Assembly (NCBI RefSeq): GCF_003790525.1
Contig: NZ_CP033635.1
Strand: one strand, 5' to 3'
From: Escherichia coli
Lineage (GTDB): Bacteria; Pseudomonadota; Gammaproteobacteria; Enterobacterales; Enterobacteriaceae
Length of the DNA: 64,000 bases
Positions 28,427 through 30,130 of this stretch are shown here, in pieces. Positions within the stretch are counted from its first letter, which is position 1. Every line of letters starts with the position of its first letter. Below the pieces are notes generated by a model that saw only the letters and a list, made by a program, of their open reading frames with translations, was not told the DNA's origin and searched no databases. The position numbers and the translations under genes are program-made.

Positions 28427-29404
28427 CATTAAATCTTTCAAAAACTAAAACTCAACCGGAAAACTTATCTGGTGTGAGTGCTATGTGATATCACTGTCAA
28501 GTTATTAGCTGTGTTTATCCTAATAAGGTATCTTTGATATATAAGCGAGCTTTATTGGTAAAGAGAGCGCTATCATAGCAGACTATGTTAAGTTAGAGCA
28601 GGGATGCGTAAGTCTGAGTGCCACGTCTTCTGTACGTATCGACGCCTTATACGATCTGGAAAATATTATCAGGCATAAACATAAAGGAGAACTTGCCTGA
28701 GTAGTTGCCTTTTGAGAAATTTATCTTCACTGGATGGGAGTTACCTGCCAACATGTGTTCCCGTCCAAGGACAGAACCAACAGTTGGGTGTTGATTACCT
28801 GGTGACGCGGAACCAACAGAAGTTGTAATTATGCAGGTCTGAGGAGATCAGTATCAGAGATATCCGAATGAACTGTGATAATGGTTTGACAAAAACGGAT
28901 AACAATACAACAGAACACGTTCTTAGTAATCTCAGCCATGGAAATAAAAATTAGATGTATCTCCAATCAGTGAGTTGCGTGGAAATTACAAGGTTCTGCT
29001 GTACGATCTGAGTGGGTTAACTTGATATTTTGTACTCGTCACAGAAAATATACAGAGATATACACTCTGGTGTAATCACTGTTGTAGGTTGATCAGGTGT
29101 CACTCTTTTTACTATAATGTTTAGTATAAGCAATGTTTTTTCAAAAAACGTTCTTAGAAGTAGAGTTACTAACTCCAAAGTTAATGACACAGAACCAATG
29201 ATAAAAAAAACTAATCCATTTCCCTCTTAAAATTTTTAACAAAAATAATTTCACATTTTATTTTAACGGGGAAATATTAAATAGTATATCTAACCCAGGG
29301 AAAGTTAATTAAATTCCATAAGTAACAATAGGGTTGATTTTTAAATCACTATATAGAATATTTATATAGATTTAGGTATTACGTTGGCAAGCTAGGTTGG
29401 AAAA

Positions 29405-30130
29405 ATGAACAATGTATTAATTGTTGATGACGATATATTAGTAGCTGATGTGATTCGTCGCATTGTAGAACAAACCCCGGCATTTAAATGCTGTGGCATA
29501 GCGTTATCACTTGGTCAGGCGAAAGAAATTATATCTGTAAATAAAAAACTGGCTGACTTGATTTTGCTTGATCTTTATATCAATAAAGATAACGGACTTG
29601 ATTTACTCCCTTTTCTTCATAGCATTCATTGCAAAAGTGATGTTATTGTAATTTCTGCTGCTGATGACTCTGCGACAATTAAAGATTCATTACATTATGG
29701 TGTTTCTGATTATCTGATAAAGCCATTTCATATCTCACGTTTGGTTGATTCGCTTACACGATGGAAACATAAAAAGACTCTTCTTGAGAGTCAGAAGATA
29801 TTCAATCAATCAGAACTGGATTTATTAACTCACAAAATAATTCCGAACACAGAAAAAATAAGACATTTACCCAAAGGACTGTCAACAGATACATTGCGAA
29901 TTATTTGTAGGTGGATTGATGAGCATCAACATAAAAAATTCACACTCAATGAACTGGCCAGTGGTATTAAGATATCCAGAATCTCATGCAGAAAATATAT
30001 CATCTGGCTGGTAAGTTGCCATATATTGGCATTTGATTTTTCCTGTGGTGTCACTGGTCGCCCTGCTTATCGTTACTGGATAAGACATCAATATTACCCA
30101 TATATTAAAAAATATAGTGAAAAACCGTAA
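29405..30130 (+). CDS. DcuR/CitB-family response regulator (receiver plus C-terminal HTH)
   Basis: 241 aa ORF; LIVDDD receiver start, SDVIVIS…DYLIKPF and RISCRKYIIWLV motifs closely parallel DcuR. Confidence 0.8.
   Translation: MNNVLIVDDDILVADVIRRIVEQTPAFKCCGIALSLGQAKEIISVNKKLADLILLDLYINKDNGLDLLPFLHSIHCKSDVIVISAADDSATIKDSLHYGVSDYLIKPFHISRLVDSLTRWKHKKTLLESQKIFNQSELDLLTHKIIPNTEKIRHLPKGLSTDTLRIICRWIDEHQHKKFTLNELASGIKISRISCRKYIIWLVSCHILAFDFSCGVTGRPAYRYWIRHQYYPYIKKYSEKP

Follow-up and report, generated by a model that had tools for sequence, protein, structure and literature searches.

An orphan DcuR-family response regulator in a mosaic aspartate and C4-dicarboxylate island of Escherichia coli, preceded by a spacer without a recognisable kinase remnant

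A stretch of 64,000 nucleotides from Escherichia coli (assembly GCF_003790525.1, contig NZ_CP033635.1), hereafter referred to as the window, carries within an accessory island a gene for a response regulator that resembles DcuR, the regulator of the DcuS-DcuR two-component system. The gene that precedes it, at 27770-28426, codes for a FadR/GntR regulator and not for a histidine kinase, and between the two lies a spacer of 978 bp. An earlier interpretation derived from the letters of this DNA and its open reading frames (the sequence-only reading) had described the gene as an orphan regulator and the DNA ahead of it as the decayed remnant of the cognate sensor kinase. Our analysis confirms this observation in part: the orphan regulator is real and probably functional, and the interpretation of the spacer as a kinase remnant is unsupported. 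The features discussed in this work are listed in Table 1.

Table 1. Positions of the regulator gene, the spacer and the neighbouring modules in the window
Feature	Position	Strand	Remarks
Orphan DcuR-family response regulator gene	29405-30130	+	Intact open reading frame, 241 aa; REC domain plus DpiA/CitB-type helix-turn-helix
Non-coding spacer (978 bp); modules on either side acquired separately	28427-29404		No kinase or other pseudogene recognisable
Very AT-rich segment, presumed promoter/leader	29101-29404 (304 bp)	+	GC content 0.257
String ITVVG*SGVTLF of the sequence-only reading	29075-29110	+	294 nt ahead of the start codon
Four-gene cassette: argininosuccinate-lyase-like enzyme, two Dcu-family transporters, FadR/GntR regulator	23427-28417		Citrobacter homology
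Second ansB (L-asparaginase II)	30724-31770	-	Convergent with the regulator gene
aspA-dcuA-like pair (aspartate ammonia-lyase, C4-dicarboxylate transporter), Sutterellaceae type	32258-35148	-	Candidate regulator target operon

The parallel to DcuR holds over the full length of the protein. The island regulator aligns end to end with DcuR of strain K-12 (56.9% identity over 239 aa, E 1.7e-94), and its residues 1-238 match positions 1-238 of 239 in the NCBIfam equivalog model for DcuR, NF007750, with 312.9 bits at a cutoff of 262, as compared with 104.7 bits for the NCBIfam DpiA model. Identity to DcuR and DpiA amounts to 56% and 30%, respectively. The similarity to DcuR is highest in the receiver (REC) domain (64%), lower in the DNA-binding domain (55%) and lowest in the linker (37%). 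The N-terminal part is recognized by the Pfam model Response_reg (E 2e-17) and possesses the acidic pocket, phospho-acceptor Asp, Ser/Thr and Lys of a receiver domain: residues D9, D56 and K106 are located in invariant columns of the family alignment and S84 in a nearly invariant one, and all of them are retained. The C-terminal part corresponds to a DpiA/CitB-type helix-turn-helix (HTH) domain in which the ISRxSCRKYxIWLV core and helix are kept; the conserved stretch reads ISRISCRKYIIWLV in the island regulator and ISRVSCRKYLIWLV in DcuR. The protein thus shares with E. coli DcuR, a member of the CitB/DpiA type, both full-length collinearity and the combination of a REC domain with a DpiA-like HTH domain. 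Its hidden Markov model score and its architecture place it in the DcuR family.

The gene is annotated as 'DcuR' in RefSeq, a label which masks its status as a second, kinase-less paralog. Unlike dcuR of E. coli, it has no adjacent dcuS, lies away from dcuB-fumB and is borne by an island or a plasmid in about 4% of the genomes. Among the sampled orthologs of Escherichia and Citrobacter identities are 85-89%, as opposed to approximately 56% between these proteins and the island regulator. Because of this level of identity, the location in an accessory island and the additional presence of the true dcuSR genes in the genome, the island regulator is a paralog and not an ortholog of DcuR. Likewise, the operon structure typical of dcuR is absent, as the upstream gene is the FadR/GntR gene 978 bp away, with no cognate DcuS-type kinase gene.

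The description as an orphan was borne out in every setting inspected. No histidine kinase gene is present in the operon or the neighbourhood of the regulator gene. A tblastn search of the 64-kb window with K-12 DcuS returned chance matches only, and no kinase is annotated across the collinear region of E. coli SMS-3-5 in RefSeq. Similarly, none was present at the regulator locus in any of the approximately 220 carrier E. coli genomes and plasmids examined, variant loci included. A kinase gene was also missing from the settings in which the neighbouring modules occur elsewhere (Citrobacter, a taxon whose GntR protein is 70% identical, and Sutterellaceae). A complete dcuS-dcuR pair is found in the core genome of 5415 of 5426 E. 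coli genomes, and in K-12 dcuR directly follows dcuS with an overlap of 4 nt. Since the regulator groups with the Escherichia/Citrobacter DcuR clade and dcuS and dcuR form an operon in K-12, we infer that its lineage must once have had a kinase. Nothing places the loss of that kinase in the spacer.

The content of the spacer was analysed by several approaches. The sequence-only reading had described an AT-rich stretch of 960 bp with no long open reading frame. The latter part of this description is correct, as the longest frame in the 978 bp comprises 57 aa and stops occur in every frame. The AT richness fully applies to the last 304 bp only; the preceding 674 bp (28427-29100) have a GC content of 0.392, akin to the values of 0.40-0.44 in neighbouring genes. 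For a comparison with sensor kinases, K-12 DcuS, DpiB and two 532-aa paralog kinases of the Leclercia type (see below) were used as queries in sensitive tblastn searches, with 40 shuffled sequences as null. The best kinase match in the spacer reached 21.6 bits, which lies within the range of the shuffles (19.1 ± 1.7, maximum 25.4) and was equalled or exceeded by three of the 40. The Leclercia-type kinase had no significant similarity to the spacer, and K-12 DcuS searched against positions 27701-30400 yielded chance matches only. The string ITVVG*SGVTLF, which had been placed just before the regulator and likened to the C-terminus of DcuS/CitA-type kinases, does exist. However, 294 nt separate it from the start codon downstream, and its match to DcuS residues 484-514 (13.5 bits, E=44) is at chance level.

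Profile and database searches gave the same picture. Similarity to sCache/PAS, DHp (SPOB_a) or HATPase_c domains was not detected in the spacer. Six-frame translations of it, with stops written as X, matched no kinase in NCBIfam at E<=10, the one hit being a spurious match to CHIPS (E 0.043), and the six concatenated frames had zero homologs at E<=10 among 5.8 billion proteins. Residual coding signal was lacking too: codon-usage log-odds were flat or negative in all six frames of the spacer and did not exceed about 0.07, as compared with 0.1-0.34 for the flanking genes in their correct frame. Nor did any carrier genome or plasmid offer an intact kinase gene with which the spacer could be collinear. 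At the nucleotide level, blastn disclosed no second copy in the window, zero matches to dcuS, dpiB, the DNA of the paralog kinases or the Citrobacter and Sutterella loci, and, in a search for distant similarity among E. coli genomes and plasmids, the island itself only. A search of Rfam (E<=1) gave two sub-threshold chance matches, both outside the spacer; folding z-scores of both strands (-2.2 to +1.75) were unremarkable, and scans for repeats and terminators did not find anything beyond expectation. Nothing in the spacer thus speaks positively for the remains of a kinase gene, of another gene or of an RNA, and on the strength of these searches we consider it very probable that no recognisable kinase remnant is present. 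No similarity to sensor kinases or any protein in the upstream region and an intact dcuS-dcuR pair elsewhere in nearly all genomes are the two observations that had been named beforehand as speaking against a remnant, and both were made.

Judged by homology and composition, the spacer is junction DNA between a Citrobacter-like cassette and a low-GC piece that contains the regulator gene, because similarity to Citrobacter DNA breaks off at the gntR stop codon, the composition drops near position 29100 and insertions of insertion sequence (IS) elements are tolerated. The AT-rich 3' third probably carries the promoter of the regulator gene; the best σ70-like site, TTGATC-18-TATAAT at 29089-29118, agrees with the consensus in 10 of 12 positions. 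IS2, IS3 or IS5 are inserted at spacer positions of about 49, 67 and 128 in different strains (approximately 28475, 28493 and 28554 of the window). In other strains, where an IS element or a deletion has removed the rest, no more of the spacer remains than the final 85-114 bp ahead of the ATG (from spacer position 864-893, or 29290-29320, onward); strains of the GD33 type, for example, keep only the last 114 bp, which are 84% identical to the window. Across strains, the spacer is a recurrent target of independent IS elements, with at least four positions affected.

The descent of the regulator was traced by comparison with its homologs. A search for a donor among 5.8 billion proteins did not retrieve any homolog between 57% and 100% identity. 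In a neighbour-joining tree, the island regulator has a long branch and diverges basally to the enterobacterial DcuR proteins. Its identity decreases from 56% with DcuR of E. coli and Citrobacter to 45-47% with Erwinia DcuR and the paralogs of Salmonella and Leclercia, and it shares 8 of 14 clade-specific residues (6 of them derived) with Escherichia/Citrobacter DcuR as compared with 2 of the other clade. Both the identity gradient and the distribution of clade-specific residues suggest that the protein branched off from an Escherichia/Citrobacter-type dcuR and has evolved rapidly. The distance between the two genes is large. GC content at third codon positions (GC3) is 0.27 in the island gene and 0.58 in K-12 dcuR, and identity at these positions is 36%, with 23% expected by chance; synonymous sites are near saturation.

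Evidence for selection came from the comparison of two alleles of the island gene. The window allele differs from the GD33-type allele by 29 nucleotides, of which 16 are synonymous and 13 non-synonymous. The ratio of non-synonymous to synonymous polymorphism (pN/pS) for this single allele pair is 0.22 (binomial P=6.5e-5), which shows that the regulator gene has been under purifying selection. Among 222 carrier genomes, 220 possess a full-length copy, and the gene stays intact in strains in which IS insertion or deletion has affected the upstream DNA, even where no more than the last 85-114 bp are left.

Taken together, these data are best explained by an orphan paralog of DcuR that is functional and whose upstream spacer is not a kinase relic, a reading to which we assign a probability of roughly 0.6. 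The regulator would descend from an Escherichia/Citrobacter-type dcuR, have diverged strongly and be retained by purifying selection. Its residue D56 would be phosphorylated by a kinase encoded elsewhere in the genome, with the resident DcuS as the most plausible candidate. DcuS senses external C4-dicarboxylates, aspartate included, and phosphorylates DcuR, which activates dcuB, frdABCD and dctA. Via its well-conserved HTH stretch the island regulator may bind DcuR-like sites, and island genes such as aspA-dcuA-ansB could thereby be tied to the C4-dicarboxylate signal. Phosphorylation by DcuS itself is possible, at somewhat less than even odds. A further proposal must be worded still more tentatively: a diverged DcuR might have been captured on its own, lacking its kinase from the time of acquisition, and plug a horizontally assembled island into the DcuS of the host. 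If true, one core kinase would drive two regulators with distinct regulons, and a natural branched two-component pathway would have been born of horizontal transfer.

Several points weigh against the reading as a functional paralog linked to DcuS. The match of the C-terminal domain to the Pfam model HTH_64 is weak (E 0.036). In 15 of 81 columns that are invariant across 14 proteins of the DcuR clade, the island regulator has an altered residue, including Y20 replaced by I. Together with M12L and L16V, this change affects helix α1 at positions otherwise conserved in the family. These are positions which, from work on Spo0F and RR468, we take to contact the kinase, so that the partnership with DcuS may have ended. 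The selection estimate derives from one pair of alleles with 29 differences. Promoter-like sites are not more numerous in the spacer region than in shuffled sequences. Moreover, a neutral relic of the regulator's age would be undetectable because synonymous sites are near saturation. Finally, expression, phosphorylation and targets of the regulator are addressed here from sequence alone.

The changes in helix α1 would be in line with a regulator that functions without DcuS, being phosphorylated by another kinase (e.g. DpiB/CitA) or by acetyl phosphate, or acting independently of phosphorylation; it could then compete with DcuR at DcuR sites or form a heterodimer with DcuR and modulate the core regulon. 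Shared DNA sites are plausible given the conserved HTH domain, and orphan regulators that use another kinase, dispense with phosphorylation or act by competition exist in other systems. We nevertheless regard such a mode of action as unlikely. By both identity and model score the protein resembles DcuR much more than DpiA, the substitutions M12L, L16V and Y20I are conservative hydrophobic swaps, and the intact acidic pocket, D56 and K106 speak for a continued role of phosphorylation.

Less probable again is the possibility of an inert passenger. The regulator would then be the relic of a broken two-component system, would owe its intact state solely to the young age of the island and would have no signalling role. 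The absent partner kinase, the long branch with its altered DcuR-invariant columns, the foreign composition reflected in GC3 and the abundance of pseudogenes and IS elements in the island all agree with this possibility; in addition, intactness says little as most carriers are more than 99% identical. It is contradicted by the low pN/pS between diverged alleles, by the retention of all phospho-acceptor residues and of the HTH core, by an intact gene where IS elements have removed the upstream DNA to within 114 bp, and by the full-length state in almost all carriers.

The idea that a cognate DcuS/CitA-type kinase decayed in situ and gave rise to the spacer can draw on the position of dcuR right behind dcuS in K-12 and in the Leclercia-type paralog pair, which implies an ancestor with an upstream kinase, on a plus strand that is slightly purine- and G-rich between 28427 and 29100, and on near-saturated neutral sites that would leave a very old relic without signal; it is very improbable in view of the missing kinase similarity beyond shuffles, profile match, homolog and coding signal, a length of 978 bp where about 1.6 kb are needed for a kinase, the featureless 300 bp of 26% GC abutting the ATG where the 3' end of a kinase is expected, the distant and chance-level ITVVG*SGVTLF string, and neighbours such as ansB that were captured as tight single-gene fragments, which makes capture of the regulator alone equally plausible.

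A further comparison concerns a second DcuS/DcuR-like pair of Enterobacteriaceae of the Leclercia/Salmonella type, which consists of a 532-aa kinase and a 241-aa regulator, the latter equal in length to the island regulator. This pair is located between dcm-vsr and cbl-nac (loci L007-L010; L010, 4406-6726 and 10047-12011), the chromosomal neighbourhood in which the E. coli island is inserted; in L010 the distance to cbl-nac is about 4 kb. Its kinase is intact, and its regulator is 45-46% identical to the island regulator, a value below that of true DcuR. The pair was considered as the intact counterpart of the island locus and rejected, as regulator identity is only about 45%.

CovR of Streptococcus mutans is described in PMC3105014 as a response regulator whose gene is kept without a nearby gene for its cognate kinase CovS. 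The island regulator resembles CovR in being retained without a nearby cognate kinase gene. It differs from it with respect to family and host, and in that a complete paralogous kinase-regulator pair is present in the same genome. With the DcuSR pair coexisting, a many-to-one or branched pathway would be a likelier arrangement than action independent of a kinase. A dead kinase beside a live regulator would be a routine case of a pseudogene; here, a natural orphan paralog of a well-studied regulator is under selection alongside the complete DcuSR system.

The regulator gene is part of an accessory island that adjoins cobUST, asnV and cbl-nac and contains many IS fragments and pseudogenes. Positions 7701-50400 of the window are 99.99% identical to 1116745-1159445 of E. 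coli SMS-3-5 (NC_010498.1). Among the 5426 complete E. coli genomes, 224 (about 4%) contain the 2.7 kb around the regulator gene, mostly with at least 99% identity, and 222 contain the regulator gene itself. Searches of the literature by accession and keywords did not retrieve any relevant work on the island or the regulator paralog. The island is also present on a few conjugative IncF/IncI plasmids; plasmid NZ_AP022088.1, representing conjugative plasmids of the IncFIB/IncI type, carries an island segment at 127678-152655. Genes for a TonB-dependent receptor and a ParB/IbrB-like protein are intact in the plasmid-borne island, and in both cases the chromosome of SMS-3-5 has a pseudogene. Possibly, the plasmids carry the older or source copy of the island.

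With at least five Dcu-type transporters, two copies of aspA, ansB, an isoaspartyl peptidase/asparaginase, pepT and an Asp/Glu racemase, the island is devoted to the uptake and catabolism of asparagine, aspartate and C4-dicarboxylates. It is a mosaic of mixed origin, as it combines a Citrobacter-like cassette, an Escherichia-like ansB and a Sutterellaceae-like aspA-dcuA pair. Over its entire length, the cassette is 77% identical at the nucleotide level to loci of Citrobacter freundii, with no homology beyond. It codes for an argininosuccinate-lyase-like enzyme (TIGR00838, 615 bits) and two divergent Dcu-family transporters with approximately 35% identity to DcuA/DcuB. Neither a response regulator nor a kinase gene was ever found beside the cassette in C. 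freundii or, in rearranged form, in other taxa. The C. freundii copy adjoins genes of a type VI secretion system.

On the other side of the regulator gene, the second ansB is about 95.5% identical at the nucleotide level to the core E. coli gene, and the homology is confined to 30692-31765, which is essentially the coding sequence. This copy is located downstream of the foreign aspA-dcuA genes, as if recruited into that operon. The synonymous divergence (dS) of ansB between the two island alleles is 0.17, as opposed to no difference in the adjacent dcuA, which suggests that recombination has taken place within the island. The AspA and DcuA proteins share 54-55% amino acid identity with their K-12 counterparts, as compared with 89% (AspA) and 86% (DcuA) with proteins of Duodenibacillus/Sutterella. 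The pair is thus an apparent case of inter-class transfer between gut bacteria, with Sutterellaceae (Betaproteobacteria) on the other side, and it is a candidate target operon of the regulator. In Duodenibacillus/Sutterella genomes, no response regulator or kinase gene was found within 10 kb of aspA-dcuA.

DcuSR-dependent use of aspartate and C4-dicarboxylates is linked to gut colonization by E. coli and Salmonella. The host island gathers genes of aspartate and asparagine catabolism of mixed origin, some of them from gut Betaproteobacteria, and a rewiring of the C4-dicarboxylate signal by the regulator in avian and human strains of a phylogroup-F-like background is possible.

Two further observations were made in the window. 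An inverted second aspA copy is present at 62785-64000 of the window, with 99.3% identity over 1216 bp; in SMS-3-5, the second aspA is truncated by IS3 and followed by another Dcu transporter gene and genes for an Asp/Glu racemase and a LysR-type (HypT-like) regulator. Just left of the cassette, at 21995-22957, short pseudogene fragments of a thioesterase, the precolibactin peptidase ClbP and a galactonate dehydratase were detected, which suggests earlier occupants of an integration hotspot associated with tRNA-Asn.

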